Shown here: positions 27,040 through 61,702 of the stretch, piece after piece | Layout: every line of letters begins with the position of its first letter | Position numbering within the stretch: the stretch's first letter is position 1 | Source: Chitinivibrionales bacterium | GTDB lineage: Bacteria > Fibrobacterota > Chitinivibrionia > Chitinivibrionales > WJKA01 | Length of the DNA stretch: 64,000 bases | Direction: 5' to 3' | NCBI GenBank assembly: GCA_038247415.1 | Contig: JBBRUX010000001.1 | Coordinates: 1-64,000 of the forward strand | Position numbers and translations under genes: made by a program | The notes under the pieces: generated by a model | Database searches by the model: none | Told to the model about the DNA's origin: nothing | The model's input: the letters and a program-made list of their open reading frames with translations, nothing else

Positions 27040-28854
27040 TTATTTCCCTTTGAGCAACCGAGAATAGAGCGATGGATTACCCAAAATATCTATGGCTGCC
27101 TTGAGCTCGGTATCATTATTAAGCCGGGCACGATAAACAATTTCATTGTCTTGTCCAAAAACCTGCGCTAACATTGCTTCGCGCAAAAAGGTGCGAATTT
27201 CAGCATCATGGGCGCCAAATTCGCGACCACGTTCTTCAACCAAGATCTTTTCGATTTTAGCGGAGAGATCTTTAACTGCTATTTTTTCTGCGGCGCTTAA
27301 GGAAATCGAATCGAACCGAGCCGTTTTAGCAGTATCTTTTACACTATCGATTACTCCAACACGCTTTTTGAAGTCTTCAAAAATAATTTGGGCGTTGGAG
27401 CGGTATTTGAATTTTATTGAATCGAGGAAATTTTTAAAATCAGCCATCACCATATCGTTGACCTTAAAATTCTCATCGATAACTATTTTTTTCTTCTCAA
27501 GACGAATATGCTCGATGGTAGAAAATCTAAAAAACATGTCGTCGCTGAGTAGCGTAAGAATAAGGGGATTAAAAAATGGAGGAATATGCACCGAATCGGG
27601 AACTATACCCCCGCCTCCATGCACAATACGTCCACCTTTAGTCTTATAAACCATTGTATCTAATGGTGTTTTCTTGTTTTTAAGAGAATCGGCGACTGCC
27701 GCTGAATCAACAGCTTCTCCATCTTCAACAACCCCTGGCTTCTTGCCACGAATGCCATTCTCGGGCTTATTGATGCAGCGTCCAGAAGGTGTGTAATAAA
27801 ATGCTGTTGTCATCTTGATTGTATGCGACGAATCGAGGGGAAGAATCGTTTGAACAGATCCTTTGCCAAACGTGGTATCTCCGAGCACTACGCCGCGATC
27901 CCAATCTTGTATTGCACCGGCAACAATTTCCGATGCAGAGGCAGATCCACCATTAACCAAGACGACTATGGGCAAAGATCCTGGGATAACTGGAGCGGAT
28001 GATGAAAACTCACGATTTTGCCCAGGCATGCGCCCCCGGGTCGAAACAACAAGAGATCCCCGTGGTAAAAACTTTGCCGATACTTCTATCGCCTGGGGTA
28101 AAAGTCCGCCCGGATTTGCGCGCAAATCAAGAACGATGCCTTTCACATTTTTAGCCAAAAGACTCTTAAGTGCCTTTTCGACCTCGGAACTAGTCTCTTC
28201 TGAAAACTGGTTGAGGCGAACATAGCCAATAGAACCAGAAATTACGCCGGCAAAAGGAACCGACTTAATCTTAATGACTTCGCGGGTGAGGGTATAGGGC
28301 AGTGGTTTCCCTTCGCTTTTTCGGACAATAGTAATTTTAACCTGGGTTTGAGGCTCTCCCCGTAATTTGCCTACTGCTTCATCGAGTTTAATTCCCTTGG
28401 TAGGTTTACCATCTATTTCTACTATCTGATCGCCTGGCTGAATACCAGCACGTGCAGCGGGTGTTCCTGCAATAGGCGTCATAACGGTTAAAACTTTTTC
28501 GCGAATAGCAATTTGAATACCTAATCCACCAAACTTACCTTCGGTGTGAATGCGCAGCTCCTCAAACTCTTTTTCATCGAAATAGGCAGTATGTGGATCG
28601 AGAATAGAGAGCATCCCATCGATGGCTTTATCGATAAGATCCTTAGAGTTCATCTCTTCGACATAGCTTTGATGCACCTTTGCAGCTAAACTTTCCAACC
28701 GAATTATATCCCCGTAAAAAGAATCGCTATCGGCGCGTGTTTGCGTATCGATAAGCAGCCCGGCAAGGACAACCAGCAATACAACTAATCCGATAAAGGG
28801 AGGACTTATTCGGGGGGACGAAGATTTACCATTTGATTCTTGTTGCACACTCAT
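27040..28854 (-). CDS. ctpA: C-terminal processing protease (S41, PDZ)
   Basis: LDPHT, GKFGGLGI, LDLRANPGGLL, catalytic SASASEIVAGA and TFGKGSVQ, YYTPSGR. Confidence 0.93.
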   Translation of the reverse strand: MSVQQESNGKSSSPRISPPFIGLVVLLVVLAGLLIDTQTRADSDSFYGDIIRLESLAAKVHQSYVEEMNSKDLIDKAIDGMLSILDPHTAYFDEKEFEELRIHTEGKFGGLGIQIAIREKVLTVMTPIAGTPAARAGIQPGDQIVEIDGKPTKGIKLDEAVGKLRGEPQTQVKITIVRKSEGKPLPYTLTREVIKIKSVPFAGVISGSIGYVRLNQFSEETSSEVEKALKSLLAKNVKGIVLDLRANPGGLLPQAIEVSAKFLPRGSLVVSTRGRMPGQNREFSSSAPVIPGSLPIVVLVNGGSASASEIVAGAIQDWDRGVVLGDTTFGKGSVQTILPLDSSHTIKMTTAFYYTPSGRCINKPENGIRGKKPGVVEDGEAVDSAAVADSLKNKKTPLDTMVYKTKGGRIVHGGGGIVPDSVHIPPFFNPLILTLLSDDMFFRFSTIEHIRLEKKKIVIDENFKVNDMVMADFKNFLDSIKFKYRSNAQIIFEDFKKRVGVIDSVKDTAKTARFDSISLSAAEKIAVKDLSAKIEKILVEERGREFGAHDAEIRTFLREAMLAQVFGQDNEIVYRARLNNDTELKAAIDILGNPSLYSRLLKGK

Positions 28855-28916
28855 TTAAACTCCTCGGTATAAAATATATTCAGCTAAACATCATGTCGCT
28901 TGCAAGGAAACCAAAC

Positions 28917-29561
28917 CTATAGAGACGCAGCACTAGGCAGCCATAATGCATCGATTCTCTCCATTACTTGACGAGTGATAACATCAGGATCCTGCGCGCC
29001 ATTAATTACAGTGCAGCGAGTTGCGTCCTCGGTTGCCATGGTTTTATATCCTGCCCTAACCTTGACAAAAAACTCCCGCCCAAGGCCTTCGAGACGATCG
29101 GCATTTTTCTGCCTGCTGACAAGTCTGGCATGTGCAGTGTCTGCATCGATATCAAATACGAACGTATGATGAGGCTTTACCCCACCGGTTGCAAAACGAT
29201 TAAGCGCCATAAGAGCATTTAAATCTCCGTGGCGTCCGTACCCTTGATATGCAAAGGTCGCAAGCTCAAAGCGATCACATAATACCACTTCGCCTGCAGC
29301 TAATGCGGGCTGAATTACTTCTTGTACATGTTGGGCCCGCGCAGCAAGATACAGCAATACCTCGCACGAATTATGCATTTCGGAATGATCGGGATCTATA
29401 AGAATACTTCTAATTTTTTCTGAGATGATAGTGCCACCTGGCTCACGACTTTGCCGATAAGCAACACCACGCTCTGCCAATATTTTGGCAATGCGCAGAA
29501 CCTGTGTTGATTTTCCACAGCCATCGATGCCTTCGAACGTTAAAAAAATGCCATTACTCAT
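28917..29561 (-). CDS. tmk: Thymidylate kinase
   Basis: [33 protein letters not shown] overlap with the secA stop. Confidence 0.95.
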
Positions 29562-32500
29562 GCAGTGGCTCCATGACACTTTTTATACTTTTTTCCACTT
29601 CCACATGGACACGCGTCGTTTCGGCCGACCTGCTGTTCAACTCGAATAGGTGCTGCAACCGGACTATCGCTCTCACGATTGGTGATCATTGGCTGAGACC
29701 GCCGAACAGGAGCTTGCACAAGTTGATCGGTGGGTGGTTGTCCATCAGCCGAGAATGCATCAAATTCGGCATGTACTGTTTTAGCTTGATTAAGTCCCAT
29801 ACGATCCTGCTCTTGAGCAACTGCTTCGAGCCTAAAAATATAGCCCGATACATCGCGTGCAATGAGCGAACGCAATTGCTCGAACATTTTAAGACCTTCG
29901 CGTTGGTATTCAAAAAGAGGGTTTTTTTGAGCAAACGAACGATACTGCACAGCGTCTTTGAGATGATCCATTTCGTAAAGGTGGTCTTTCCAGAGGTTAT
30001 CGATAACCATTAGAAATACACCCCGCTCAAATTGACGCATGCCTTCTGAAGTGAGACGGACTTCTTTAGCTTCGTACCGCGATTTGATTGCTTTCCAGCA
30101 ATCATCAAAGAGCATATTCTGAGACATTTTTGCCGTAGTTTCGGCAGGAATGGTATAGCTTACCCCGCACGTTGCAGCAATATCGGCATAGAGTCCATCT
30201 AGATTCCATTCCTCAACATATTTTCCTTCGGCCGTAAATTTAAATATTGCATCTTCGAGCCAGGCTGCTGTTTGATCGAGAATTTCGTCGCGAACATCTT
30301 CACCTTTGAGAATGCGTTGGCGCAATCCGTAAATTTGCGTTCGCTGTAAATTCATGACATCGTCGTATTCTTTAAGGTGCTTACGTTGATCGAAGTTGCG
30401 TCCTTCGACGCGCTTCTGAGCGTTGCCAATGGCTCCTGTAACAAGCGGATGACTAATTACTTCGCCATCCTCGGCGCCAAGCCGTTCCATAATTGACGCG
30501 ATACGACCAGACCCGAAAATACGCATGAGGTCATCATCAAGCGACAAGAAGAACTTCGATGATCCTGGGTCTCCCTGACGTCCAGCACGACCGCGCAGCT
30601 GATTGTCGATACGACGTGCTTCGTGGCGTTCGGTACCAATAATATGCAAACCGCCCAGATCGATGACCTTCTGATGCTCGTCTTGAAGTTCAGTATGCAG
30701 CGCAGCATAATTTTTGCGCTTTTCGGATATTGACAAATCGTCAATCGACATGCCTTCGCGGGTAATCTGATCGTTGACCATGATGTCGAAATTACCACCC
30801 AATACAATATCTGTTCCGCGACCTGCCATGTTGGTAGCAATCGTAACGGATCCCAACCGACCAGCTTGTGCTACAATAACAGCTTCGCGTGCATGCTGTT
30901 TGGCATTAAGAACGTCGTGCTTAATACCCGCACGCGAGAGGAGTTTGCTTATGAGCTCCGATTTTTCGATGGAGGTTGTACCAACAAGGATCGGTCTACC
31001 GAGTGCATGAATCTCCTGAATCTCTTTGACAATGGCATTATACTTTTCGCGATGTGTTTTATAAATTTCATCTTCGAAGTCTTTACGCTTAAGACCCCTG
31101 TTTGTTGGAATTGTTACCACATCGAGCTTATAAATTTCGTGGAACTCGGCAGCTTCGGTAGTAGCGGTACCGGTCATACCCGATATCTTTTTGTAAATTT
31201 TGAAATAGTTCTGGAAGGTAATGGTAGCAAGCGTCTGATTCTCTCCTGCAACCTTGACGTTTTCTTTTGCTTCAAGAGCCTGATGTAAACCATCGCTATA
31301 GCGCCGTCCAACAAGAATACGCCCTGTAAATTCGTCGACAATAAGTATCTGACCATCCTGTACAACATAATCGACATCACGCTCGAAAAGCGAGAACGCA
31401 CGCAACAATTGACTCACACAATGAATCCGCTCGTTACCTTCGGCATAGGCACGATGCCGATCTTCTTTGCGCTCTGCCTTGGCAGCAGGATCGAGTGTCT
31501 CGTCATTATCGATATGAGCAACTTCTTCGGCAAGATTTGGCACAACAAAAAAGTCGGGTGTCGATCCAGAAATGAGGTCTCTTCCTTTTTCGGTAAGCTC
31601 GGCAGAATGTCCGGATTCGTCCATGACATAATAGAGCTCTTCATCGATCTCATGTAGTTTACGCTCACGAAGGTAGTCGGTCTCCACCGTTTTCATAATC
31701 CGACTTACACCAGCTTCTTTAATGAGCTTGACAAGCTTCTTATTTTTAGGAGATCCACGTTGCACTGTAAGCAATTTAAACCCAGCTTCGTACTCCTTGT
31801 CTTTATCGGCAAGAAGTTTTTCGGCCTCGTCGATTACTTTTTGCACAAGCTGAATTTGCGCTGCAACAACTTTTGCAACACGCGGACGGAGCTCTTCGTA
31901 TTCTCGATTGTTTTTTGTTACGGGCCCAGAAATAATAAGCGGAGTTCTTGCCTCGTCAACAAGAATATTATCGACTTCGTCGATAATGGCATAATTAAGT
32001 TCCCGCTGTACACAATGATTGGGCGACCCAGCCATGTTATCGCGCAGGTAATCGAATCCGAATTCATTATTAGTACCATAGGTAATGTCGGCATTATATG
32101 CTTGTCGGCGTTCGGTCGATCCTGGTTCTGTGAGATCGAGACACCCTACGGTCAAACCTAAATAAGAAAAAACACGACCCATCCACGAAGAGTCGCGACG
32201 AGCAAGGTAATCGTTGACCGTAATAACATGTACGCCTTTGCCAGACAATGCATTGAGGTATGCTGCAAGCAGCGCTACCTGGGTTTTTCCTTCACCCGTT
32301 TTCATTTCTGAAATTTTGCCCTGATGCAAAGTAATACCACCCATTATTTGCACATCAAAATGGGCCATGTAGAAAATATTCTTGCCCACAGCATCTGTTA
32401 GAACGCGCTTTTCACCCAGCACGCGATGCGTTGCCTCACGTACAACCGCAAATGCTTCTGGCAGAAGATCGTCAAGGGTTGTTCCCTGAGCAATCCGTTG

Positions 32501-32656
32501 CCGAAACTCAATAGTCTTAGCGGCTAATGCTTCATCGGATAAGGCTGCCACCGATTCACGTTGGCCATTCACGGCAACCACAAGAGGCGCCAGTTTTTTA
32601 ACATCCCTATCTGTTTTGCTCCCAAAAACTTTTCCAATAATCTCTATCAGTTGCAT
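29558..32656 (-). CDS. secA: Preprotein translocase ATPase SecA (long FCB-type form)
   Basis: [45 protein letters not shown] and SEC-C tail [13 protein letters not shown]. Confidence 0.98.
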
Positions 32657-32657
32657 G

Positions 32658-33245
32658 TCATTTCCTGTCTAAAGTACAATCGCGTATTACAATATTTAAA
32701 ATGGGCTCATTCTTCAAAATTCTATTAAGCTCTTTTTTGACAAGAGGCGCTAAAACTGCTGGTTTCATCTCCGAGAGCGCTAGCTTCCCCACTGAACCAA
32801 CAATCAGACCTCGTAATTCTTCCCTTTTAAAGAGAATCTCCTTGCGTCGGTTCACATCAGAGAATTGACAATCAACATTCATCACTATCGAGAGATCGGG
32901 CCGATCGAAAACAACACTGCGAACGGCAGCGAATGTTATGGTTTGCAAAGGCTTTGCGAAAGACATGGTATCGACAATTGAAACAGGCGCAGCCGCAGGG
33001 CCTTGCTCTGGCTTATGCATTACCCCACCCGGCATACTATCAGTGCTCGAAGCGGCTGCGACACTTTGGTTGGCAGGTTTGGTCTTAGGAGTCCATCGCT
33101 GCAAAACACTTTTTAAACCATGCATCGGCAGTGCGTCTCGATTATTATAAACCACAATCCCCGCAAGACAGAGCACTACTACACTGATTATAATTCGCCT
33201 GACACCCTGCTTTTTTTTACTTTGTTCCCATGATGGCTCGTTCAT
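32658..33245 (-). CDS. FliL-like single-pass membrane protein
   Basis: N-terminal TM and linker. C-terminal [13 protein letters not shown]...[22 protein letters not shown] follows the FliL C-domain pattern. Confidence 0.55.
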
Positions 33246-33252
33246 GCGAAAT

Positions 33253-33585
33253 TTACTCTCGCCCAATTTCACCCACGATACCACATTTTAATTCAACACC
33301 TTTAGAGTAGGCATCGACAAGCGCATTAATGCTTGCATGCATTTCAGGCGATACCTCAATAAATTCTAAACCCACCCGGTAGCCATCTAATCGGGATGTT
33401 GTATGCCGAACAATTGCTTTGCACACGATAGCATTAAGCTTAACGGTTACAAAAGCCCCAACTTCAAGATTTTTTGTGAACAGACACGCAACGCCATGTG
33501 AGCTTAAATCAAAAAAATTCAACTGATTGTCAACCAGATCGATATTCTCGACCCGCTCTTCGACTCGATCAGATTCTGAATTCAT
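33253..33585 (-). CDS. Stand-alone PilZ domain protein
   Basis: RxxxR (RVEER), DxSxxG (DLSSHG) and GLEF motifs. Confidence 0.85.
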   Translation of the reverse strand: MNSESDRVEERVENIDLVDNQLNFFDLSSHGVACLFTKNLEVGAFVTVKLNAIVCKAIVRHTTSRLDGYRVGLEFIEVSPEMHASINALVDAYSKGVELKCGIVGEIGRE

Positions 33586-33617
33586 AGTCGACTCCTTGTC
33601 GATACATCAGTATTGAT

Positions 33618-34688
33618 TTACGACTGCCCCTCAAATGCGAAGGGGAAGACTACTTCCACAGGCCCGCCCCCGCTTATGGGGGTAAACATCCATCGTTGCA
33701 CAAACCTTACAACCATGTCCTCAAATTCGGGGTTATTCATGGTTGATTTAGCAATGGAAACACTTGCCACAGCGCCGGTTGGCAAAATAGTAAAGCGAAT
33801 TTTTATCTGACCTTTAAGCTCGGGATCTTGCTTAAGCCTATTTTCGTAGATGCGTATAAGCCGAACCTTTTCACGATCGATCACTTTTTGAATAGAGGCC
33901 ATTGAACGTTCTTCGGAAGAAGCAGATTCGCCCTTGATTTCTGGCGGTGCACTACTGGTAATATTAACACTGCCACCAGCTACGATACTTCCTCCCGATG
34001 CGCGACCAATTGCCGATTGACTGAGCACAACACCACTTGTTTTTGCACCTCGACTTTCCTTAATATCGGATGCGCTTATCCCGCGCGAAGCCGCAGCAAA
34101 GGTACCCTTAGATACCTTAAGATTTTGCAAATCGGCTATGCCATCTCCATTTGCAGCCCCCAGTAAATCGTTTACCCTACCACCACCACCGCCGTTTGCG
34201 GTTGCCGTTATTGCAGCAAATATCCCAGTTGATTGTACTTGCGCTGCAACTTGTTGACGAACCGATTCGCGCGTTGCGCTGCTTGCTACCCGACGGGTTT
34301 CTCGCTCTTTGAATGTTTCTTTTTCTCTGTCAACAGGGGCAGCTTCGGCTGGCTTCTCTTCGGTAGTTTGTGCCTGCTCTTGCGCCTTTGGCGTTATTTC
34401 TGTTGGATTTGGAATTTCTTGAGGCTTTGGCACGGGTTGATTAAGCACGATGCTTGCATAACGCTCTTGAAGCTTAAGAATTTGAGCATCGGTCATTACA
34501 TCGGATTGTTTACGAAAAGAAAGAAGATACACCGATAACCCTACAACAAGAAGCGAAATGCCAAAAAGGAGCACAAAACGAGGCTCAACCTTCCCAAATA
34601 GGCGCGACCGTAACTCACGTGGAAAGCTCGTAGGCTGTCCAGCTGCAGCGTTCTGCATGAGAAAAATGCCAGTAGAATCGCTTGCCAT
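33618..34688 (-). CDS. TonB-like energy transducer with AgmX/PglI (GltG/GltJ-type) C-terminal domain
   Basis: TM, Pro/Glu-rich and Gly-rich linker, C-terminal YENRLKQDPELKGQIKIRFTILPTG.V...STMNNPEFE...RW.F...V.FPF.F. Confidence 0.85.
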   Translation of the reverse strand: MASDSTGIFLMQNAAAGQPTSFPRELRSRLFGKVEPRFVLLFGISLLVVGLSVYLLSFRKQSDVMTDAQILKLQERYASIVLNQPVPKPQEIPNPTEITPKAQEQAQTTEEKPAEAAPVDREKETFKERETRRVASSATRESVRQQVAAQVQSTGIFAAITATANGGGGGRVNDLLGAANGDGIADLQNLKVSKGTFAAASRGISASDIKESRGAKTSGVVLSQSAIGRASGGSIVAGGSVNITSSAPPEIKGESASSEERSMASIQKVIDREKVRLIRIYENRLKQDPELKGQIKIRFTILPTGAVASVSIAKSTMNNPEFEDMVVRFVQRWMFTPISGGGPVEVVFPFAFEGQS

Positions 34689-34693
34689 GGCTC

Positions 34694-35194
34694 CTATTTC
34701 CGATATACTACCAGGTTCATATTAGGAAACCCGGCCTGCCCGCAGGTATACATAACACGGGTCAGGATATTATAAGGAATTTCTTCGTCACCCTGAATCG
34801 AAATTTTTCCAGAAAATTCGGTTTTAAACATTGCAGCCGATTTACGCGATTCAACTTCAAATTTTTTAAGAACGTCATACAGCGGCGCAATCATAAAATC
34901 TTTTTGCAGTGTAAGTTGTTCAAAACCTGCAGCGTCAATAACGGTGGCATTTTCTACCATGATAGAATTTTGTGACACCTTTACAGACAATGCTTCCTGC
35001 GCGATTGTTTCGACGCTGGACTTGGGAAGCATAAGCCCTTGCGCAGGAGTAACCATTTGCCCTTGAGACGAATAGTTTTGCAGCAAAAACACAACCATGA
35101 GGGTGAACATGTCAATCATGGAGGTGATATTGAGTTTTACTGTCCCATCACCCTTGCGACGGCCTCTGCCGCGTTGCGTACGAGAACTCGGCAT
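34694..35194 (-). CDS. exbD: ExbD/TolR family protein (AglS-like)
   Basis: LNITSMIDMFTLMVVFLL TM with conserved Asp, LPKS, IQGDEEIPY..L..VM.TCGQAGF. Confidence 0.9.
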   Translation of the reverse strand: MPSSRTQRGRGRRKGDGTVKLNITSMIDMFTLMVVFLLQNYSSQGQMVTPAQGLMLPKSSVETIAQEALSVKVSQNSIMVENATVIDAAGFEQLTLQKDFMIAPLYDVLKKFEVESRKSAAMFKTEFSGKISIQGDEEIPYNILTRVMYTCGQAGFPNMNLVVYRK

Positions 35195-36492
35195 TATTGA
35201 ACGATCCCTCCGGCTATCGACACATTCGGAAAGAGCGTAACAACCCCGCCATCGGTTTTAGCCCCGCGGGCAGCATCCATTACTGCAACAACGGTCTGAT
35301 ATTTGATCTTTTCTTCGGCAACAATTTTTATCGATTCATTGTCGGGAAAAGTCGTAGAACCGCTCAAATCTTTTGAAATATACGCCTTGTAAAGTTCTAT
35401 GAGGGTGGCATCGGGCCCCACCGTGAAATACGCTTTGTCAATTTCATAGAGTGCTTTGCGCTTCACCTCGCACAGAGCCTTGTTGAGCGCTTCTAAATCG
35501 TATTTTCCATCCGATAAAAGCGGGATGTCTGGTTCACCAGGAGCCTGGGATCCTGCCTTACTGGCTTCGGTTTTATAATAATGAAAAAGATTAAAACCTT
35601 TGGCAGTAATAACTACTCCAACTTCAAGCTTTGTTTCCAGTGCAGCTACCGAAGACCCGCCACCACCACCACCCGAAGCTTCGGGCAATTTGAGCTCGAT
35701 GCTTCCAATTTTTACAAATTCTGATGAAGTAAGCAACACGGGGATAAGAATAACCATAAGGTTGAGCATGGGCGTAACGTCTGCATCAGCAGCTTCTTCT
35801 TCGCCACTACTGCGCCTGGTGAGTGTGATCTGTTTTTTCTGATTAAACTCGGGTGGATTGAGAATATTGAGAATCGCAACAGCATACCGATCGATCTCAA
35901 CCAGAACAGCATCTACGCGTGCTCGTAAAAAAGCATACGCAACAACGCATAAAACAGAAATCGTCAAGCCAACAAGGGTAGAATTCATTGCCGCAGAAAT
36001 ACCCGCAGCAAGCAATGCAGATTTTTCTGTTGCTTCTATGTTAGGTTGGCTCACTGCAGAAAAAGACATTATCAGACCAAAAACAGTTCCAAGGAGTCCA
36101 AAGAGTGTCGAGACATTCCCAAACATTACCATTATGCCCAAATGTCGTTCGAGGGCTGCATTCATATGGGTAGACTCTTCGGACATTGCCCCCATGACAA
36201 GTTCGGGAGATTCCTTAGACTTTTTTATACCCGAAGCAAGAATGCGCGGAAGAGCCCGTTTTCCCCCTGCGGCACATACCTGATAGGCTCCATCGATATT
36301 TTTTTCGTAGACAAGTTTCTTGACCTTATCAAAAAGTGCCAGAGCATCGTAGTCGGAGTAGGCTCCAATTGCTAGCCATCGTTCGAGGGTAATTAAGGCC
36401 CCAATAATACCAATAACCGCCAGACACCACATGAATATGAAGGCATCATGACTAGGGAAAAAACATTTGGCAAGTTCGGGAAGAAAATCCAT
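35194..36492 (-). CDS. ExbB/TolQ::ExbD/TolR fusion protein (AglR-AglQ-like)
   Basis: Residues 1-210 are MotA/TolQ/ExbB-like (GNVSTLFGLLGTVFGLI, GISAAMNST). After about 25 aa of linker comes an ExbD-like part (DVTPMLNLMVILIPVLL...LKLP...IVAEEKIKYQTVVAVMDAAR). One uninterrupted ORF. Confidence 0.88.
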   Translation of the reverse strand: MDFLPELAKCFFPSHDAFIFMWCLAVIGIIGALITLERWLAIGAYSDYDALALFDKVKKLVYEKNIDGAYQVCAAGGKRALPRILASGIKKSKESPELVMGAMSEESTHMNAALERHLGIMVMFGNVSTLFGLLGTVFGLIMSFSAVSQPNIEATEKSALLAAGISAAMNSTLVGLTISVLCVVAYAFLRARVDAVLVEIDRYAVAILNILNPPEFNQKKQITLTRRSSGEEEAADADVTPMLNLMVILIPVLLTSSEFVKIGSIELKLPEASGGGGGGSSVAALETKLEVGVVITAKGFNLFHYYKTEASKAGSQAPGEPDIPLLSDGKYDLEALNKALCEVKRKALYEIDKAYFTVGPDATLIELYKAYISKDLSGSTTFPDNESIKIVAEEKIKYQTVVAVMDAARGAKTDGGVVTLFPNVSIAGGIVQ

Positions 36493-36509
36493 GTGATATC
36501 AGATCCGTT

Positions 36510-36532
36510 GCGTCATGACAATGTCATGCCGC
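36510..36532 (-). other. Intergenic hairpin between exbB and the exbB::exbD fusion
   Basis: GCG-T-CATGAC-AAT-GTCATG-C-CGC on the plus strand, no U-tract. Confidence 0.45.
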
Positions 36533-36535
36533 GTG

Positions 36536-37303
36536 TCAGATGTTTACTTCTTTAATGAGCTTATTGTCGGTAAAAATCTTGATATTATTATGCGTCACAT
36601 GAATACCAACACCTTCTTTAAGCTGTGTTGCTGCAATATGGTATTTATGTGTTTTATACGATTTTTCGACAAGTGCATTAACCACCCGCAATGAGTGCTC
36701 ATCGAGCTCATCGATAATCTTTTGTGTTTTTGCCTTGATAAGAGCAAAAATCATGATTGCTGTAATAGCAACCGAGAGTCCCGAAAATGTTGAATTCATA
36801 GCAGTAGCAATACCAGCAGCCAAAAGCTCGGACTTTTGCGCAGCATCGATACCAGGTCGTCCCACAGCGGCAAACGACATGATAAGACCATACACGGTAC
36901 CAAGCAGCCCGAGCAAGGTTGCAACGTTTCCTATCACGGCGAGATAGCCAGTTCGTTTTTCGAGCTCGGGAATAATTCGGAGCATTCCTTCATCAATCGC
37001 GTTGCGAATTCTATCGGCACCAGAGTTTGCCTCGTCAAGGCCGGCTTTAACAACACCCGACAGTGCCATTTTTCCTGCCTTGCCGCAAATCTTGAGAGCT
37101 CCGGGTATATCGTCTTTTTCGATTGACGAAAGAATATTCTTCATAAAAAGGTCTGCTTTGTAGCCCGAGCGGGACATAAGATACAAAAGCCGTTCAACAG
37201 CAATCGAAAAGCAAAATACGCCTACAACCAAAATCGACCACATAAAAAGAAAGGCATCAGATTTTGGATTAAATGAAGCAAAAAGTTTTCCAACGAATTC
37301 CAT
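36536..37303 (-). CDS. exbB: MotA/TolQ/ExbB proton channel protein (AglR-like) with about 40 aa C-terminal extension
   Basis: AVERL, LEKRTGYL..IGNVATLLGLLGTVYGLI.SF, GIATAMNST. GGAGG RBS. Confidence 0.92.
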   Translation of the reverse strand: MEFVGKLFASFNPKSDAFLFMWSILVVGVFCFSIAVERLLYLMSRSGYKADLFMKNILSSIEKDDIPGALKICGKAGKMALSGVVKAGLDEANSGADRIRNAIDEGMLRIIPELEKRTGYLAVIGNVATLLGLLGTVYGLIMSFAAVGRPGIDAAQKSELLAAGIATAMNSTFSGLSVAITAIMIFALIKAKTQKIIDELDEHSLRVVNALVEKSYKTHKYHIAATQLKEGVGIHVTHNNIKIFTDNKLIKEVNI

Positions 37304-37526
37304 TCGGTTCCTCCGTATTGTTCCACGCTTATATGATCAGATGATCAAAACCGTTATAGTGGCTCGAGACTCAAGGGCTTATTACTCTAAAACATATAAT
37401 AATATATATCAGGTAAAGAATATACTACTTTGGATAGGTAGAAAGCACATGGAAAATACTTTCTCATTGACGCGTTGAATATCTATTATGAAAAAGTATG
37501 CGCAAGCCGGCTAAACCATGACGGAA

Positions 37527-37859
37527 TTAGGGCTGATAATTTGATATGGCTCGACCAGAAAACTGGAAGGCGCCATCATATGAAGATTTCTGCAACACAG
37601 AAGGATCAACAAAATCCACAATATTTCCGCCTTTTCCAAGACTTTGAATAACCATCGGCGCAAACTCGGGACGCTGATCGGCCTTAATGAGCACAAGCTG
37701 AGGGCGACGGATTTTCCCTTCGATTTTCTGCTCTTCAAAAACAAGCTTTTTAACAGACTTACCTGAGGTTGTGGCACCAAGAGCGCCAAAGCTTGCCCCG
37801 AGCATGCTCAAACAGACAAAAAAATATTTAAGCGCAAATTGGTTTTTGGGAAAATTCAT
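37527..37859 (-). CDS. Small secreted protein, CglF/GltF-like
   Basis: Signal peptide, then KKLVFEEQKIEGKIRRPQ, resembling the GltF F....IEG...KP motif. First gene of the motor operon. Confidence 0.55.
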   Translation of the reverse strand: MNFPKNQFALKYFFVCLSMLGASFGALGATTSGKSVKKLVFEEQKIEGKIRRPQLVLIKADQRPEFAPMVIQSLGKGGNIVDFVDPSVLQKSSYDGAFQFSGRAISNYQP

Positions 37860-38030
37860 GGATCAATCCAAATGAAAATGATCTAGGATTATATTTTTAA
37901 AGTATACATTATGTGCACCTCAATAAATCTATTCAAAAATGACTTTTTTTTACCTTTTCCTCCTAAAATGTCCTTTTAATCTGATCAGGTACCGATTTAT
38001 CAAACTCTGCCAGATTTTTTGCAAGCGGGG

Positions 38031-38681
38031 CTATTTGCAATTCGTCAATTGCTTTCGCAGTACAAAGATTAGCCCTGCAATCCCTACCACAAATGCTCCC
38101 TCAAAGCGAGTAGCGGTTACAAGCATTGCAAGGGCAAGCAACCCAACAATGTGCCGAGTAGAGGGCTTGCGATCATCGGTTTTAATAAAAATAATCCCAA
38201 AGAATATATTTACAAATGCCTAAAGCAAGTGTTCCATACCCGAAAACACATTAGGTAAATAGGGACTTAGGGCAACTATTGCTGCAAGTAAACTAAATCT
38301 CATAAGCGCTGATAGTTTAATGAAGCTAAAAAGCATATCACACAAGAGTAAGAACGCACATCCGAAAAAACAATTGAGCACGAAAGGAAATAGCACCCCA
38401 TCAATCCCAAATCGATACGGCAGAGAAAGTATAAGCGGCCATAAAATTGACGAGGACGCTGAAGAAAACTCCCCCGGGGCAATGCCCCAGATGCCAGAAA
38501 GCGCCACATTTCGAGCTATTGTCAGATGAATATAAGGATCATCGAGCGCGTAAACAAAAATGCCATTGCAAGAGCTTATAATTTTTACATAGAGGTAAAC
38601 CGTGAACAAAAGGAAAATTGTGCACACCGCACCCCATGGAATCCATGAATAGCCTTGACCATTAATTTTTTCAGATGTCAT
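38031..38681 (-). pseudogene. Truncated polytopic membrane protein (GT-C/ArnT-like glycosyltransferase N-terminus) with an internal amber stop
   Basis: YALDDPYIH..IARN, SSSILW, SGMEHLL* followed in frame by ...LVTATRFEGAF...* (TRxEG motif). TAG at 38220-38222, ends at 38031. Confidence 0.7.
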
Positions 38682-38815
38682 GAATTATCCTAAAAAGAAT
38701 GTGCATCTTTCACGCTTGCACTGTATCACTTTACTCAACGAATAGAGCAATCTGCATTTTTTAAAGAAATTAGGTAACTTTCAGCATGCTTGCACCAACA
38801 ACTTTCAATACCAAT

Positions 38816-38841
38816 AAAAAAAGGCGCGAAGATCTCGCGCC
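38816..38841 (-). terminator. Rho-independent terminator
   Basis: GGCGCGA-GATCT-TCGCGCC plus T7 on the minus strand after 38884. Confidence 0.8.
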
Positions 38842-38883
38842 CGCAGGTCCCATCACACTTCCAAATTCAATGTAATTACTTAC

Positions 38884-39618
38884 TTACGGATGCCCACTCA
38901 CACTAAAATAATTATCTGAATAAGCGGTAAGTTCGTTGATATTATGCGAGCCTCCTGGATAGGGCTCATATACCTTTACCATCATACTGTCGCCAATAAA
39001 CTTAACCGTTGACCCAAGGGGAGTAACAGTATCTTTTGCAGCTATTTTAAATGTCCCCAGCGCAAGCTTTGCAACCGAGTCAATCATGGTATAAGATTTA
39101 TAGCTTGTTGAATTGAGATCCCGGGGGTACTGATTCCAATACTCCTCAGAAAAAGGGACATCAAGATAGAATCTACCATTTTTAGAAAACCCAACAACCC
39201 CAGCCGACGAAACAGAGAGATCTTGGAGCCAAGCAACAGTAATAGTATCCTGCCCATAGCGGAAGCTTTCTTTTCCATTGGGAGAAAGAATTCGCATAAA
39301 CTCATGTGCTTTCAAACGGCGGTACTTTACGGACGCAGATTGAACACCTGAGGCTTTCGAAAGTGGAATCTCGGTAGTGTCATAATAAGGATGAACAATC
39401 ACAAGAACATCAGACGATGATTTTCCATCTCCAACAAAAGAATAGCTACCATCCGATTGACTCGTGGTAATTGTTGATGGTGAATTTTTAAGCCAAAGCA
39501 TTGCACCCGCCACCGGTTTATTCAGTTCATTTTTGACTATTCCAGTTAATGGAGCTTCAGGCGAATTTGGCGTGCAAAATGCAAAGAGACCTATGACCAC
39601 AACTAAAAAGCGCTTCAT
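38884..39618 (-). CDS. Hypothetical lipoprotein (carboxypeptidase-regulatory-like beta-sandwich plus Ig-like domain)
   Basis: Lipobox FAFC, G.V....KPVAGA...DGSYSF, ILSPNGKESF..G..ITVAW. Confidence 0.7.
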   Translation of the reverse strand: MKRFLVVVIGLFAFCTPNSPEAPLTGIVKNELNKPVAGAMLWLKNSPSTITTSQSDGSYSFVGDGKSSSDVLVIVHPYYDTTEIPLSKASGVQSASVKYRRLKAHEFMRILSPNGKESFRYGQDTITVAWLQDLSVSSAGVVGFSKNGRFYLDVPFSEEYWNQYPRDLNSTSYKSYTMIDSVAKLALGTFKIAAKDTVTPLGSTVKFIGDSMMVKVYEPYPGGSHNINELTAYSDNYFSVSGHP

Positions 39619-43446: not shown

Positions 43447-43788
43447 CTACGTTTTTTTTGGCGGCCGATTCTTGATCATGTCCACGAGATGCACTACCGA
43501 TAGTATCGGGTGGCTAAACAGCATATACGGCCCACCTGCCCGCATCACTTTTTTTACCAGTGCTTTCATGTCCGGACTATAGCATTTAATAGTACAGTGA
43601 GAGCAAGCCGGCTTTTTTATACCATAGGGACACAGTTGTATGCGTTGCGAAGCGTAAGCAAGAAGATCGTTGCAGGTGGCATCGATCCCAGCCTCGTTAC
43701 GGTGCTTGTGCCGATAATGCTCAACCATAGAGGCGATCGTTCTATAATGACGGTTTTGCCCTGGCAATCTTGATTTCTTATCTGACAA
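43447..43788 (-). CDS. YgbA / nitrous-oxide-stimulated-promoter family Cys-rich protein
   Basis: C.DLLAYA..R...CPYG..KPACSHC...CY.P......VMR.GP.M...HP. TTG start overlapping the upstream stop. Confidence 0.8.
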   Translation of the reverse strand: MSDKKSRLPGQNRHYRTIASMVEHYRHKHRNEAGIDATCNDLLAYASQRIQLCPYGIKKPACSHCTIKCYSPDMKALVKKVMRAGGPYMLFSHPILSVVHLVDMIKNRPPKKT

Positions 43789-46700
43789 TGAGAATCTTTC
43801 CTTTAATAAGCAGTGTATTGTTTTCGTCGAGGATACAGTAAAAATACGGTCCTGCGACCACGGGCACACCATTTTGATTTGTTGCACCCCACTTCCACTG
43901 TGGTAGTGTATTAGGATCGCCTGCCACCACGGGAATAACAACACCTGCTTTTTTAGAATCAAAGACCGGATTTCCCAAAAGTGAAAATATACAAATGCTA
44001 ACATTTTTAAGAGGCTCTGGTTTAAGCGCATGTAAATTTTTAAACCAAATTCCACACGGCGCACCAAATGCCCCACAATGCGCGGAATTTATTCCTGGCT
44101 TGTAAGGATTGGGAAAGGTATAAAACCCTACGTTTGCACTACAAAAAAACCACGATGACGCACTCGTTGCCATAGCTCCACTATCGGGCAGTTGCCAATC
44201 CAGCGATGTATATGAATACTGTGTAACGAACCCATGAAACACGCATGAAATGCTATCTTGCGCAAAGAAACCAGAATCAGCTTTACAAACAATTCCCATT
44301 GAATCGGAGCTTATACGTATATATTCAAAAGTATGCGGAAATGGCCGATACCGCGAAGTTACGGTAAATGATCTATTACTAGATGCGCGCGATGTGTCGA
44401 AGGTATGGGCAAAAAGCTTATCGCTAAAACGCAGGGAAATTTCTGGACGTACCAAAGAACTATTTCCAGATTTTACAGGTATGGTTGTTGTAATCGACAG
44501 CGGTGTAACCGTATAGCGCCATGTCAAAGGTTGCGGCAAAGAAAGGGCCGTATCTGAAGGAAATGATGTAAAGAACCTGACTGTATCAGGAATTTTAAGA
44601 GCACTCAGAGAACAGGTTATAGTGTCGGGCCCATAGTAACGAAGTGTTGGATACCATTCTGCTGTTGCCCCGCGTATCACTATGCGAGAAAAATCCTGTG
44701 GGCTTGGGCCAAAAAATTTTGAGGTAACCTGCATGCTCCGATTATTATGCAAGGATGTATCGATAACGCCGTTTTGCACAAGTGTAGAAAAGGTAATCCG
44801 TTGTGGAGCCGATGCAGGCGACGACCCATTCGGCTGCGGTTCAAACGATGTGACCTGAAGATCAGCAATTGAAAAGCGCCAAACGATATCATCTGAAGTT
44901 GACAAGGAATCAAACAATGCAGAGGGAATGCCATCTCCGGAATAATCTATAGGATAGCCCAGTGAATCTCTCCCAGTTTTACTTTTGTAAACACACGTTA
45001 CAGAATCTCCATAATAAAACGCAGCAGCCGGATAGAACCATACTGCATTGCCCAGAATGCGAACCGAATCAAACGAAAGAATTTTTGTTGTACCAAACCG
45101 AGTCGTTACGCGTAGGCTTTTATTATTGCTTTTATTAGTATCGATACTCGATTTACTGAGCGGAGCATTAAATTGGAGCATGATTGTCTGTTTTCCGCAA
45201 GGCATTTTGGATTGATTTGAAGGATTTACCGATGTGACAGTAAATGTTACGCTGTCAACCCGCAACATAAGCGTCGTATCCCCGCTTTGAACCACGGCAA
45301 ACGTCCTGTGCAGATCGAACCTGTTGGGGCCTAAAGAAGCACTGTACGCTCGATCGGTCATGCCACTGCCTAAATGCAAAGAGATCGAGTCGGTTGGTAT
45401 AAAAAATCCTACTGAGGGAAATAAGCCATTGAGTCCTCTATTGGGGGCCGAATATCTAGGGGATAGCTCGCATACCGAATAATTGACAGACCAAGAAAAA
45501 GAAAACTCGATTGGCGTAATGCTATTTCCGGCGATAGAATCGAAAATCGAATAGCACGAAACATTTGCAGCCACCGATGCAGAATCCATTGGTTCTGAAA
45601 ATGTCAATACGATTTTAGAATAAGGAGGAAACACACTATGTGTGAGTGTGTTTGCACCTGTTTTGCGTAGAGCAAAAGGAATAGGTGCCCTCGCCGTTGC
45701 ACCAACGCGTGCAATACGGGGAAGATCATTATACTCCAATAAAATTGGAACGGTATCTACTGGATGGAACGGATCGGACGTGTAGACAAAAAGAGTATCT
45801 CGAATATATCCATCTCCATGAAGCAGATCGGCATTTAAAATCACTAAGAACACTCCTGTATCTGCTTTTGCCAGAACAATGCTATCCCGATAGCTGTTTT
45901 TAGAAAGGGAGTCAAACATGATATATTCGCTTCCTGATAAAGCAGGCACCCCAATCTGTATCCATCCTCGTTTAGGGTGAGCTAACGCCAACGAAGTTAT
46001 GGTGAGCGAATCGTTTCCAGTATTAACATAAGGAAGCACGATTGTATCGTATTTGTTACTCCCAACAATAAGCGACACTCCCGATTGCAGCACTTTTTTC
46101 GCCCTAACAAGCCCGGGGTTATTAAGCGAATCGAGCTCTACCCAGGGCCACTTGAAGAAAACTGTAATCGAATCCTGTGCATGATATTTGTCCCAAACTA
46201 CTATATTTACAAAAGAATCTGCCCTCGAAAAATTGAGATGATACGATGCGCTGTCGGAAGTTGCAGACCCACCGGGCGTCGTAAAACGGTATGTCATTGA
46301 ATCGAGTCCGTACCAGAGGTCACTATCATTGACCGTTGCAATAAACCGATAATCGGTACCCACTGCCATTCGTAGAGTATCCCCATCGTATGCGGTTTGT
46401 CCGCTTATGCTTACACTCGTAAGAGTTGGGACATGATTAACACCAAGCGAAAATGATAACTGTGCCGAATCATCGGGATCGACGGCTTCTACTTTTATAG
46501 GAACAACGCCAAATGCACTTTGACTAGTACCTCTATATACATAGCGGGACGTTTGTCCTATCCCAACCGAATCTACACGAATCGAATTGACATACAAATA
46601 TGCCTTTTGCCCCGCGTCATTGGAATCACTCACCGAATAGGTAATTGCTAATGAATCGCCTACCTGAATAGTAAAGCGTTCGCTGCCCGAAAGCGGAACC

Positions 46701-48724
46701 GTTACCTCCACACCACTTCGATTTGTATCAACCTTTACAGAAGCATTAATTGCCGGAGCGCTATTTCGTGTTATAAAATGTAAGGTTTTTTCGACTGCAT
46801 CCCATCCCCGGGTATCGGTAAGCGAAAGTTTTGACGCATACAGCGTGTCTTTTGTATCAAAAGGCGCAAAGGAAAGCATTGCATGTTGCGATGCCGCAGT
46901 AGCAGTTGCTTGTGCAGTTTTTGGAATATACACAAGGCCGGTAAGCGTTACAGCATCATTAGTATCTGCATCGTGAAACCCAATAAACATGGTAATGCTA
47001 TCTTTACGGGCAAAGAGTTTAATGGTATCGCCAAAGCTTATTGTTCGCTTTACAGATCCATCATAGATAAGCGAATCGATAGATTCTAAAAAGGGTTTTG
47101 CATTCCATCGAATGGTTACTGCTTGCGCAACCGGAGAAAAAAGGGAATCCCTGGTATTTCTGGATAAAGCAACTTTATAGCGATAATACATGCTCGACGT
47201 TTTTCCAGACGTAGCTAAAACCATCGAATCTGCAGCATTAACCCAAGGCCCCCACGCAGCAGTATTAAGAATATTTGAGCTGCTTCCTATTTGGATTGAA
47301 TCACTAATGTTTCCAAATCCACCATTGCCGCTTTGTATAAGAGTTGGCAAATAGCCTATCGAATCTCCCGATGCAAAAGGGAGTGAGTCTACCTTAGATT
47401 CAAAAAAGCCAAGTGGCTCCAAAATTCCCCTTTTTGCATAAATTGCAGCCCATGCAGAGCTACTGCCTTGCCATGTAGCTGCAATATCACCGGTAGAATC
47501 GATAGCAAGCGAAACATCCGCCTTAAATCGTTCTGTAATGGTAAGTGCTCGAGACGGATCGGAAAAAGACAGAGTTAGATCTGGGGTCGTTTGCACTTCA
47601 CCATTTAAAACCACAAACCGCCACACTGCAATTTCACGTTTGTTATCTTTATTGAGATCCGCTTTCGATCCAACGATAACATAACTGCCGTTTGTAGCAA
47701 TAGATGCAAAATGGAGCGAATCTCCAACATGTACTGGAATGCGACTGGGCACAAGCGAGATACCATTCCAAGAAAAAACGTACATGAGCAAAGAATCGGC
47801 CCGCCATGTTGCTGCTGCAAATCGATTAGGCGCAAAGCAAACGACCGGGGCATCTTCGGTATAAAAATCAAAGAGGGTCTCATTGACTCCGTTGCGCACG
47901 AGTCCGCTATCAAGCATCTGGCAATTTGATCGCATGAATTTGAATTCAAGTTGTTTACTCAGCACTCCGGAAATCGAAACTTTTCTGGTATACAAAGCAA
48001 GCATTGTATGATTTACAGAATCGAATGCCAGCGACGGATTCATGAATGCTTCGCTTCGAGGTGGTGCAATGATTCCCGTTGCAATAGTATCCAGGCTTTT
48101 TTGAACAAGGCTTCGCTTAGCAGCCAGATACTTTCGAGTAACAAGTTTTAAGTTATCGATTTTTTGGATAACGATAAAAGTATCGTTTCCCGCATATGCA
48201 AGAGACCCCAGTGGGGTGGTATTCTTGGAAACTGTAAGACTTGTTGAATCAGTCATAGCGACGAGGGAATCAAACCCCCCCGTAACAATTGTTGCTAAAA
48301 AGGTAGATCTTCCCATGGCAGCCCTTAGATACGAAGAAATCGTATCTATATTTGAATAGAGCTTTTGAGAAGCCCCTTGTGTAAAGCTTGTTTGCGTGAG
48401 GGAGATATTTCTTCGAAACACATTTTCTTGTGCTCCCCCAAAGGCTGTCGAGCTGGTTTCTGCCCAAAAAAAGCCAAATGTTGTTGGGTTAACCGGCATT
48501 ACCCACGACGATCGCGAATGTACTTTGGTTGGGCTTATGAGTGAATCGCCATAGTAACGTGTAAGGATCGTATCGCGGGGAGCCAAAATAAGACTATCTG
48601 AATAGCGCACATGCAGTGAAGTTTGAGGCTGATTAAAATCTGGATATATCTTACTGCCTGCCAAGCCCACGCTACACAGGCAAACTATCTCAAGTAAACT
48701 TAGTGTATACCTAAGCCTGTGCAC
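43778..48724 (-). CDS. Large (about 1650 aa) secreted surface protein with cadherin/Ig-like and Big_5-like repeats and a FlgD-Ig/T9SS-like C-terminal domain
   Basis: Signal-like N-terminus, DxDxND and VDPDD motifs, LTFSEPMD and three IDT..NN.S..VTSR/KF-type repeats, terminal FYTFPNPYKP...WGATNQNG..V.AGPYFY. GTG start overlaps fliJ. Confidence 0.75.
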   Translation of the reverse strand: MHRLRYTLSLLEIVCLCSVGLAGSKIYPDFNQPQTSLHVRYSDSLILAPRDTILTRYYGDSLISPTKVHSRSSWVMPVNPTTFGFFWAETSSTAFGGAQENVFRRNISLTQTSFTQGASQKLYSNIDTISSYLRAAMGRSTFLATIVTGGFDSLVAMTDSTSLTVSKNTTPLGSLAYAGNDTFIVIQKIDNLKLVTRKYLAAKRSLVQKSLDTIATGIIAPPRSEAFMNPSLAFDSVNHTMLALYTRKVSISGVLSKQLEFKFMRSNCQMLDSGLVRNGVNETLFDFYTEDAPVVCFAPNRFAAATWRADSLLMYVFSWNGISLVPSRIPVHVGDSLHFASIATNGSYVIVGSKADLNKDNKREIAVWRFVVLNGEVQTTPDLTLSFSDPSRALTITERFKADVSLAIDSTGDIAATWQGSSSAWAAIYAKRGILEPLGFFESKVDSLPFASGDSIGYLPTLIQSGNGGFGNISDSIQIGSSSNILNTAAWGPWVNAADSMVLATSGKTSSMYYRYKVALSRNTRDSLFSPVAQAVTIRWNAKPFLESIDSLIYDGSVKRTISFGDTIKLFARKDSITMFIGFHDADTNDAVTLTGLVYIPKTAQATATAASQHAMLSFAPFDTKDTLYASKLSLTDTRGWDAVEKTLHFITRNSAPAINASVKVDTNRSGVEVTVPLSGSERFTIQVGDSLAITYSVSDSNDAGQKAYLYVNSIRVDSVGIGQTSRYVYRGTSQSAFGVVPIKVEAVDPDDSAQLSFSLGVNHVPTLTSVSISGQTAYDGDTLRMAVGTDYRFIATVNDSDLWYGLDSMTYRFTTPGGSATSDSASYHLNFSRADSFVNIVVWDKYHAQDSITVFFKWPWVELDSLNNPGLVRAKKVLQSGVSLIVGSNKYDTIVLPYVNTGNDSLTITSLALAHPKRGWIQIGVPALSGSEYIMFDSLSKNSYRDSIVLAKADTGVFLVILNADLLHGDGYIRDTLFVYTSDPFHPVDTVPILLEYNDLPRIARVGATARAPIPFALRKTGANTLTHSVFPPYSKIVLTFSEPMDSASVAANVSCYSIFDSIAGNSITPIEFSFSWSVNYSVCELSPRYSAPNRGLNGLFPSVGFFIPTDSISLHLGSGMTDRAYSASLGPNRFDLHRTFAVVQSGDTTLMLRVDSVTFTVTSVNPSNQSKMPCGKQTIMLQFNAPLSKSSIDTNKSNNKSLRVTTRFGTTKILSFDSVRILGNAVWFYPAAAFYYGDSVTCVYKSKTGRDSLGYPIDYSGDGIPSALFDSLSTSDDIVWRFSIADLQVTSFEPQPNGSSPASAPQRITFSTLVQNGVIDTSLHNNRSMQVTSKFFGPSPQDFSRIVIRGATAEWYPTLRYYGPDTITCSLSALKIPDTVRFFTSFPSDTALSLPQPLTWRYTVTPLSITTTIPVKSGNSSLVRPEISLRFSDKLFAHTFDTSRASSNRSFTVTSRYRPFPHTFEYIRISSDSMGIVCKADSGFFAQDSISCVFHGFVTQYSYTSLDWQLPDSGAMATSASSWFFCSANVGFYTFPNPYKPGINSAHCGAFGAPCGIWFKNLHALKPEPLKNVSICIFSLLGNPVFDSKKAGVVIPVVAGDPNTLPQWKWGATNQNGVPVVAGPYFYCILDENNTLLIKGKILIVR

Positions 48725-49169
48725 GTGCCTGCCCTCGAATAAAGCCCTGTTGTGCAACTTCATCCATAAACCGCTGAGCAAAACGTCCCTGCTCTTTTTT
48801 CCATGCTCCTTGCCGATGTTCTTTAAGCAATTCTACAGCGCGTGTTTTTTGTCGAGCTTTAACCAGACGCATGCGTATCTGTTCCGACTCTGCAGATAAG
48901 TCATCGATCCGTCTCGCACTAAAGAGCATTTGAGCTTTTAAGGAATGGCGATAGGCAACACCTTGCAAGAGAAGTCCAACAGACAACGCCTTCTGTCGCG
49001 CATTTTTTTCCGAAACTTGCAGTTGTTTTAATTCGTCGTGAAGACAGCGCAAGGCATCTTGGGCAAGAGCAATTTCTTTATTCTTGTGCGCAAGCTCCTC
49101 CTTGATTGCATCTTCTACCCGTTGACGCAACGTAAGCAATGTTTCGAGCGAAAAATGGAAACGTTTCAT
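48711..49169 (-). CDS. fliJ: Flagellar export chaperone FliJ
   Basis: MKRFHFSLETLL.LR, coiled coil, Q..MDE. Follows fliI. Confidence 0.9.
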   Translation of the reverse strand: MKRFHFSLETLLTLRQRVEDAIKEELAHKNKEIALAQDALRCLHDELKQLQVSEKNARQKALSVGLLLQGVAYRHSLKAQMLFSARRIDDLSAESEQIRMRLVKARQKTRAVELLKEHRQGAWKKEQGRFAQRFMDEVAQQGFIRGQARAQA

Positions 49170-61644: not shown

Positions 61645-61702
61645 AGATCACCTACCAATCCGATTTATGTGTCTACGCACATGCAAAGCCAGGCACTCAT
61701 CG

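Follow-up and report, generated by a model that had tools for sequence, protein, structure and literature searches.

This locus raises the question of why a PilZ domain protein and a FliL-like protein are encoded together with a motor of the TolQ/ExbB type. It lies in a stretch of 64,000 nucleotides (nt) from a Chitinivibrionales bacterium (contig JBBRUX010000001.1, positions 1 to 64,000), which we refer to as the window, and comprises seven minus-strand genes of one orientation (37859-32658). Until now, rings of FliL and PilZ proteins serving as brakes, clutches or stabilisers have been known solely from flagellar MotAB stators; for TolQR, ExbBD and AglRQS, whose architecture is likewise 5:2, comparable accessories have not been described, nor did our literature search find a paper pairing FliL or PilZ with ExbB, TolQ or Agl motors. 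We found that pilZ and the FliL-like gene belong to a tightly packed operon-like run, and that a cluster with the motor, a putative sensor of cyclic diguanosine monophosphate (c-di-GMP) and a FliL look-alike is kept throughout the Fibrobacterota. A non-flagellar envelope motor may be regulated here like a flagellar stator, and we lean tentatively towards assigning the PilZ protein and the FliL paralogue to this Tol/Glt-class envelope motor as its accessories. The features of the locus, in the direction of transcription and with protein lengths in amino acids (aa), are the following.

37888..37917, minus strand: promoter-like site 5' of the first gene, TGCACA-18 nt-TATAAT, with 10/12 consensus matches (a consensus match only)
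37527..37859, minus strand: small secreted protein, 110 aa, with a signal peptide; distant CglF/GltF-like family
36536..37303, minus strand: TolQ/ExbB-type proton-channel subunit, 255 aa (PF01618, E 2.4e-24)
35194..36492, minus strand: ExbB::ExbD fusion, 432 aa (PF01618, E 9.5e-23; PF02472, E 5.1e-12)
34694..35194, minus strand: free ExbD/TolR-type subunit, 166 aa (PF02472, E 9.7e-15)
33618..34688, minus strand: GltG-like TonB-type transducer, 356 aa (TonB_C, E 2.2e-8; NF033768, 81.2 bits, cutoff 40)
33253..33585, minus strand: stand-alone PilZ domain protein, 110 aa (PF07238, 32.2 bits, cutoff 22.5)
32658..33245, minus strand: divergent FliL paralogue, 195 aa from its ATG (fold and family-profile evidence)
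29558..32656, minus strand: secA (SecA domains), starting 1 nt past the FliL-like stop

The seven genes and the continuation of the run into secA are thus all present where the initial annotation had placed them. It had put the first gap at about 220 nt and the others under about 45 nt; we measured 223 nt between the small gene and exbB and 43 nt or less thereafter. The exbB and fusion genes are separated by 43 nt, the start of the free exbD overlaps the fusion stop by 1 nt, and the remaining distances are 5 nt (exbD to the GltG-like gene), 32 nt (GltG-like gene to pilZ), 7 nt (pilZ to the FliL-like gene) and 1 nt (FliL-like gene to secA), this last junction reading TGA, C, ATG. An AAGGAG Shine-Dalgarno sequence stands ahead of pilZ in the 32-nt gap. 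The longest open reading frame of the FliL-like gene begins at a GTG at 33284, and the ATG start gives the 195-aa protein. A consensus scan found no terminator-like site between the operon genes, an Rfam scan of positions 32000-39000 gave no match at E<=1, and the 223-nt gap showed no unusual structure (z = -1.67). The scan that returned the promoter-like site of the list gave 23 such sites, compared with 16.5 +/- 4.6 in shuffled sequences. Among the 36 related loci described below the nearest upstream gene is a divergent SIS-domain-family gene in 18, which fits an operon start at the small gene; outside the window the upstream neighbours are divergently transcribed housekeeping genes. Downstream of secA the window holds tmk and then an S41 protease gene, and the string runs on into a PpiD/SurA-like gene and mlaEFD, making up an envelope-biogenesis supercluster (27040-37859, minus strand).

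Looking at the FliL-like protein, we first note that the window copy on its own gave no Pfam or NCBIfam match at E<=1, PF03748 (FliL) included. A HMMER search collected 61 FliL-like proteins at E<=1e-3. Two high-ranking ones, P0122 (5241 aa) and P0128 (5636 aa), are eukaryotic-looking plectin-like-repeat proteins and were judged spurious, since their scores sum many weak stretches of 0.5-11 bits each; without them the alignment contains 59 sequences, window copy included, and 21 of these match PF03748 at E<=1 (best 5.4e-6). The AF2 model computed on this family alignment reaches a mean predicted local distance difference test (pLDDT) score of 83.7, exceeding 93 for residues 101-194; in it a single transmembrane helix is joined to the C-terminal domain by a linker of poor order. 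When this model was compared with the PDB by Foldseek, ranks 1 to 10 were all FliL (H. pylori 7sgn, the 6ahq fragment and C. jejuni 9hmf chain O) with target template-modelling (TM) scores of 0.61-0.83, and the SPFH domains of HflK/C and stomatin ranked next. A profile built from the 17 operon-linked copies gave two PDB matches at E<=1, both of them FliL (1.7e-4 for C. jejuni FliL, and 0.013), and 28 of the 30 nearest clusters in a language-model atlas fell in FliL sets. In a word-index search the single sequence found itself alone and the family profile found 5 proteins. Taken together, the modelled fold and the family profile, which matches FliL alone in the PDB, establish that the window protein has the FliL fold and is a distant FliL homologue, as had been proposed for this gene. 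In its predicted layout the N-terminus is cytoplasmic and contains a conserved Trp; a single transmembrane helix and an invariant NN pair follow, and a variable linker leads to the periplasmic domain of FliL/SPFH type. It thus shares with flagellar FliL (7sgn, 6ahq, 9hmf chain O) the single helix and the periplasmic domain, and differs from it in escaping PF03748, in its long variable linker and in the family-specific NN motif.

Both c-di-GMP motifs ascribed to the PilZ protein are there, RVEER at residues 7-11 and DLSSHG at residues 26-31, and the corresponding RxxxR and D/NxSxxG are retained in 17/17 PilZ copies, R7, R11, S28 and G31 being invariant. FSRGVP forms a further conserved motif at the C-terminus, and the only PDB relative of the family profile is the PilZ domain of Alg44 (E 0.003). 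Judged by these motifs, the protein is likely a c-di-GMP receptor. The analogy with the YcgR/FlgZ type did not hold, however: the protein is a 110-aa stand-alone domain with a single PilZ match and no other domain, and the N-terminal YcgR (PilZN) domain of YcgR, MotI and FlgZ is absent. It resembles stator PilZ effectors in its intact motifs, and in standing alone it is like the flagellar regulators MotL, DgrA and McrA (PMC8203827); as far as can be told from its residues, it is not of the tetrameric type of FlgX. A complex prediction with ExbB, residues 1-235 of the fusion and PilZ as the scored partner gave 0.00 and 0.00, values that carry no weight either way.

Is the association of these two genes with the motor peculiar to this organism? 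A genome scan with the motifs of the small protein, using one genome per species, returned 36 loci, all from lineages labelled Fibrobacterota. The gene next to the small gene is exbB in 31 of them; four have another context and one reaches the contig end. Twenty-one of the related loci span the interval from the GltG-like gene to secA, and the window brings the number of operons to 22. The order ExbB, fusion, ExbD, GltG-like, ..., SecA, Tmk was found in 21/21 spanning loci, indicating that the arrangement is more than chance, and the S41 protease follows Tmk in 14 of the 21. According to the family hidden Markov models, 12 of the 22 operons contain both PilZ and the FliL-like protein, encoded between the GltG-like gene and secA, 5 the FliL-like protein alone, 4 PilZ alone and 1 neither, so that at least one of the two is present in 21/22. 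The FliL-like gene lies between the GltG-like gene (or pilZ) and secA in 16/21 loci. When these states were placed on an ExbB-plus-fusion tree of 24 rows, 21 of them with a known state, operons with both genes fell in both deep clades, and a minimum of 3 changes was needed for PilZ and of 1 for the FliL-like gene. The pilZ/fliL linkage suggested by the initial annotation is therefore frequent and reaches both deep clades but is not universal, PilZ being absent from 6/22 operons and the FliL-like gene from 5/22. We also considered taxon labels as a stand-in for flagellation and dropped them, the labels being scattered against the tree.

We then looked at the motor itself. The top NCBIfam match of the free ExbB is tolQ, at 60.5 bits and under the cutoff of 221. 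Its sequence and the N-terminal half of the fusion are paralogues (35% identity over 231 residues); a further BLAST alignment, of the ExbB tail with the ExbD part of the fusion, was not significant (E 0.78). The fusion carries PF01618 at residues 81-200 and PF02472 at residues 232-412, and the PDB relatives of its channel half are TolQ (55.6 bits), ExbB (43.8) and MotA (19.1), in that order. The channel threonines are invariant in both channel paralogues, as T136 and T172 in the free ExbB. The free ExbB also ends in a conserved cytoplasmic tail of about 45 aa (residues ~211-255; window 36536-36670, minus strand) with many invariant residues in 29 copies (K220, H222, I223, G231, T237 and others). 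This tail has no counterpart in ordinary ExbB/TolQ and is kept with or without PilZ.

The ExbB::ExbD fusion is present in all 24 copies. In 24/24 of them the fused ExbD moiety has an Asn (N244) at the position of the transmembrane Asp of the free ExbD, where the canonical residue, D28, is likewise found in 24/24 copies; the alignment of N244 with D28 rests on a weak hhalign match (E 0.0013, probability 18%), and a PDB search with the free ExbD gave no match at E<=0.01. Among 5:2 motors it is unusual for channel and central dimer to be joined covalently with only one subunit protonatable, and a phrase search of the literature found no paper on natural ExbB-ExbD fusions.

The product of the next gene, for which an AgmX/TonB C-terminal similarity had been noted, turned out to be GltG-like over its whole membrane and periplasmic part. 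Its N-terminus is short and cytoplasmic; beyond a single transmembrane helix come a long periplasmic region, in which several islands are conserved, and a TonB C-terminal domain of the AgmX/PglI type. NF033760 (gliding_GltG) is the top family in 23/23 transducer copies; in the window copy the match (99.9 bits) places residues 22-353 on positions 323-646 of the 650-position profile and so extends from before the membrane helix to the C-terminus. The full-length GltG cutoff of 650 is missed because the cytoplasmic FHA half is absent. The cutoff of NF033768, the AgmX/PglI C-terminal domain, is reached in 23/23 copies.

The small secreted protein was more difficult to place. It has 342 relatives at E<=1e-3, with the invariant core IEGK-RRPQ-VLI-A--RP-F-P, and its invariant QLVLIKA stretch presumably resembles a TonB box. 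The cglF-like call made for this gene stood at the family level only: NF033764 (gliding_CglF) matches 34/40 family members at 12-23 bits, far under the cutoff of 90, whereas the window protein and 5 other members have no CglF match, and for the window protein we found no direct family match of any kind. We take this as a weak indication from sequence that the family is distantly CglF/GltF-like. No PDB relatives were found, and in the AF2 model (pLDDT 65.5) only the signal helix is folded; by this model the protein is probably disordered until bound. CglF is the same protein as GltF in the accessible part of PMC4488436. GltF is described, in the part of PMC11761067 at our disposal, as disordered alone, with its beta-strand modelled as docking on the TonB C-terminal domain of GltG. 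Four of the 36 loci (L006, L009, L012 and L036) have the small gene apart from any ExbB, followed by a convergent alcohol-dehydrogenase-like gene (L006, L009 and L036) or by a helicase gene (L012); these stand-alone genes may be second copies or split operons.

How close is this set to the Agl-Glt machine of M. xanthus? At the level of domains and family profiles it resembles Agl-Glt in three respects: the channel is TolQ-like and has two partners of the TolR/ExbD kind, the transducer matches GltG from the transmembrane helix to the AgmX/PglI-type C-terminus, and an upstream gene encodes a small secreted protein that is predicted to be disordered and whose family is weakly similar to CglF. For the channel, the comparison covered the two PF01618 proteins and the two PF02472 moieties. 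Unlike in Agl-Glt, the transducer has no FHA domains and the curated GltG and CglF cutoffs are missed, there are two channel paralogues of which one is fused to ExbD, and PilZ and the FliL paralogue are added. The Glt partners do not accompany the operon: no GltD/E/C-type TPR (tetratricopeptide repeat) gene lies near it, either in the 64-kb window or among the conserved upstream neighbours in the 36 loci, and outer-membrane Glt genes are likewise missing nearby. The core containing GltF, as it had been put initially, also needs correction. In the part of Luciano et al. 2011 available to us (PMC3169522), the conserved core is AglRQS plus GltD, E, G and C, GltF is given for Myxococcales and Bdellovibrionales only, and an extra unassigned gene is mentioned in the core clusters of other bacteria. 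To our knowledge, gliding is not known for the organisms that carry the operon.

From the gene content, the domain and fold identities, the conserved motifs and gene order and the operon-like packing, a working model can be drawn. The operon would encode an envelope motor that is driven by protons and belongs with TolQR, ExbBD and AglRQS in the 5:2 class. In its pentameric channel the free TolQ-like protein and the paralogue joined to ExbD would be assembled around a central dimer formed by the free ExbD (Asp) and the fused ExbD moiety (Asn). This motor would energise the GltG-like TonB-type transducer, whose AgmX/PglI C-terminal domain probably captures a beta-strand of the disordered CglF/GltF-like protein; through this strand capture, force would be relayed in the direction of the outer envelope, in line with the model for Myxococcus GltG/GltF. 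Just as FliL rings encircle MotB, the FliL paralogue would enclose the long periplasmic portion of the ExbD-type dimer and lend it stability. PilZ, for its part, would be a c-di-GMP-binding brake, clutch or stabiliser that works on the channel from the cytoplasmic side, after the example of YcgR, MotI and FlgX acting on MotA. In this model the protein-protein contacts, the stoichiometry, the binding of c-di-GMP and the action of PilZ and FliL on this motor rather than on the flagellar one are only what we infer. The tight packing, the fixed position across the phylum, the divergence of the paralogue from canonical FliL and the common 5:2 architecture speak for it. So does the C. jejuni precedent, in which, according to the available part of PMC11725899, the PilZ protein FlgX lies under a 5:2 stator and a FliL ring around it.

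Several observations weigh against this attribution to the envelope motor, and some of them favour a flagellar role instead. Every characterised FliL and motor-directed PilZ acts on flagella (PMC8203827, and PMC11725899 in the part available), and the window does encode flagellar proteins: flgB, flgC, fliE, fliF, fliG, fliH and fliI are found at 56024-49206, which implies that the organism is flagellated. In agreement with the initial annotation, which had described the operon as lying away from them, these genes are 11.3 kb upstream, with six genes between, one of them on the opposite strand. Flagella have been inferred to be ancestral in the phylum and lost in Fibrobacteraceae (PMC4704652). 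Adjacency, moreover, does not imply a common machine, since secA, tmk and the S41 protease gene belong to the same string and are equally tight. The motor genes persisted through at least three losses of PilZ and at least one of the FliL-like gene, so that both accessories appear dispensable for the motor. The lack of a GltD/E/C-type gene near the operon, noted above, is a further point on this side.

The best-surviving alternative, which we nevertheless regard as unlikely, assigns pilZ and the FliL-like gene to a flagellar module, a DgrA/MotL-type PilZ with a FliL or MotF-like paralogue, that is housed in a housekeeping string and acts on MotAB. Besides the flagellar functions, the flgB to fliI genes and the ancestral flagella just mentioned, it can draw on the hypothesis that Caulobacter DgrA works via FliL levels (PMC8203827), on the FliL paralogue MotF, which has a flagellar role in S. 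meliloti according to the accessible part of PMC9541039, and on the presence of the unrelated secA and tmk in the string. In addition, L016, which belongs to the clade without the FliL-like gene, is labelled Fibrobacteraceae; on the other hand, the Fibrobacteraceae-labelled L014 and several 'Fibrobacter sp.' loci keep the gene, and these labels are unreliable and conflict with the tree. The genomic context argues in the opposite direction. The FliL-like gene comes after the ExbBD/GltG-like operon, not with motAB or fliMN, and holds its place before secA in the 16/21 loci counted above. In the 36 loci, a search for FliI, FliH, FliG, FliF, FliE, FlgC and FlgB gave no homologue; it extended up to 10 kb on each side where the contig allows and covered these seven proteins, not MotA, MotB or FliM. 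The window copy is also far from canonical FliL, as its failure to match PF03748 indicates.

The nature of the motor has also to be considered. It could be an ordinary TonB-ExbB-ExbD uptake energiser or a Tol-like envelope-integrity system, its likeness to Glt reflecting the common ancestry of TonB-type domains and the small protein being a periplasmic ligand or adaptor; we hold this to be distinctly improbable. The ExbB, ExbD and TonB_C domains (PF01618, PF02472, PF03544) all score above their Pfam cutoffs as in TonB-ExbB-ExbD, TIGR01352 (TonB family) is reached in 23/23 transducer copies, and the channel subunits match TolQ and ExbB best. The operon is also Tol-Pal-like, TolQ being the best solved-structure relative of the channel, the transducer having a TolA/TonB-like layout and the setting being one of envelope biogenesis, with secA, the S41 protease, the PpiD/SurA-like gene and mlaFED as neighbours. 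Against this, gliding_GltG outscores all TonB/TolA models over the part from the transmembrane helix to the C-terminus (99.9 bits compared with ~30), tolA_full matches only 1/23 copies, and the upstream partner family matches nothing consistently except CglF/GltF. The extra fused paralogue and the Asn in place of Asp in one ExbD also depart from TonB-ExbB-ExbD. The 64-kb window contains no gene for a TonB-dependent receptor, and tolB, pal and cpoB were found neither in the window nor in the loci.

This alternative has a parallel in F. succinogenes, where an ExbB/ExbD/ExbD/TonB operon is more abundant on cellulose and has been proposed to drive cellodextrin uptake (PMC6851124, in the part available). 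We asked whether FSU_2400-2403 is the operon described here and rejected it: its proteins differ in size, at 23, 32, 18 and 32 kDa, with no ~47 kDa fusion (PMC4619616).

Finally, the idea that PilZ and the SPFH-fold FliL-like protein work with secA, tuning Sec export or membrane-protein quality control by c-di-GMP, is very improbable: secA does start 1 nt past the FliL-like stop and is next in 21/21 loci, and HflK/C and other SPFH quality-control scaffolds are the next-best structural matches after FliL, but secA keeps its position with or without PilZ or the FliL-like gene and the fold matches FliL better than HflK/C. We know of no precedent for such a role, and made no search for one. The secA gene is part of the conserved string, not necessarily of the machine.

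Other genes of the window, all on the minus strand, deserve mention. Between the flagellar genes and the operon are encoded a 1667-aa protein with similarity to Ig-like Big_5 domains (43778-48781) and a 525-aa protein with weak matches to a type IX secretion system C-terminal sorting domain and to the Fibrobacter family TIGR02171 (39707-41284). Type IV pilus/type II secretion-like genes (PilO, PilN, PilM, three N-methyl pilins and T2SS-F) occupy 208-5902 and 9062-10021 and include a second PilM-like gene. A 132-aa open reading frame (18676-19074) matches only the C-terminal part of RhuM (profile positions 150-249 of 252) and is probably a gene fragment. The cytochrome c oxidase genes COX1-4, with a gene resembling UbiA-family haem O synthases (60766-63980), suggest that the organism may respire oxygen, unlike cultured Fibrobacter.

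Going beyond the role of the two accessories, a fuller version of our preferred reading is possible and more doubtful. It would describe an ancestral Fibrobacterota motor of the Tol/Glt class that has a dedicated PilZ for its gating by c-di-GMP, a FliL ring of its own as scaffold, and a covalent ExbB::ExbD(Asn) subunit round which it is built. This subunit would fix the heteromeric composition and tether the channel to the central dimer. An invariant ExbB::ExbD fusion with Asn for the proton-accepting Asp is also relevant to the extent of rotation that these motors require. With channel and dimer joined covalently, rotation without limit seems difficult to envisage. If the envelope motor does carry these accessories, it would be the first case of a flagellar stator accessory kit on a non-flagellar 5:2 motor, and control by a periplasmic scaffold together with a cytoplasmic second-messenger receptor would become a general property of this motor class. 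The CglF/GltF-GltG pair would then extend beyond the lineages given for GltF in 2011. For the Fibrobacterota, a phylum of polymer degraders, it would mean a direct c-di-GMP input to an envelope force transducer, and the motor might drive a surface-associated behaviour on cellulose or chitin.

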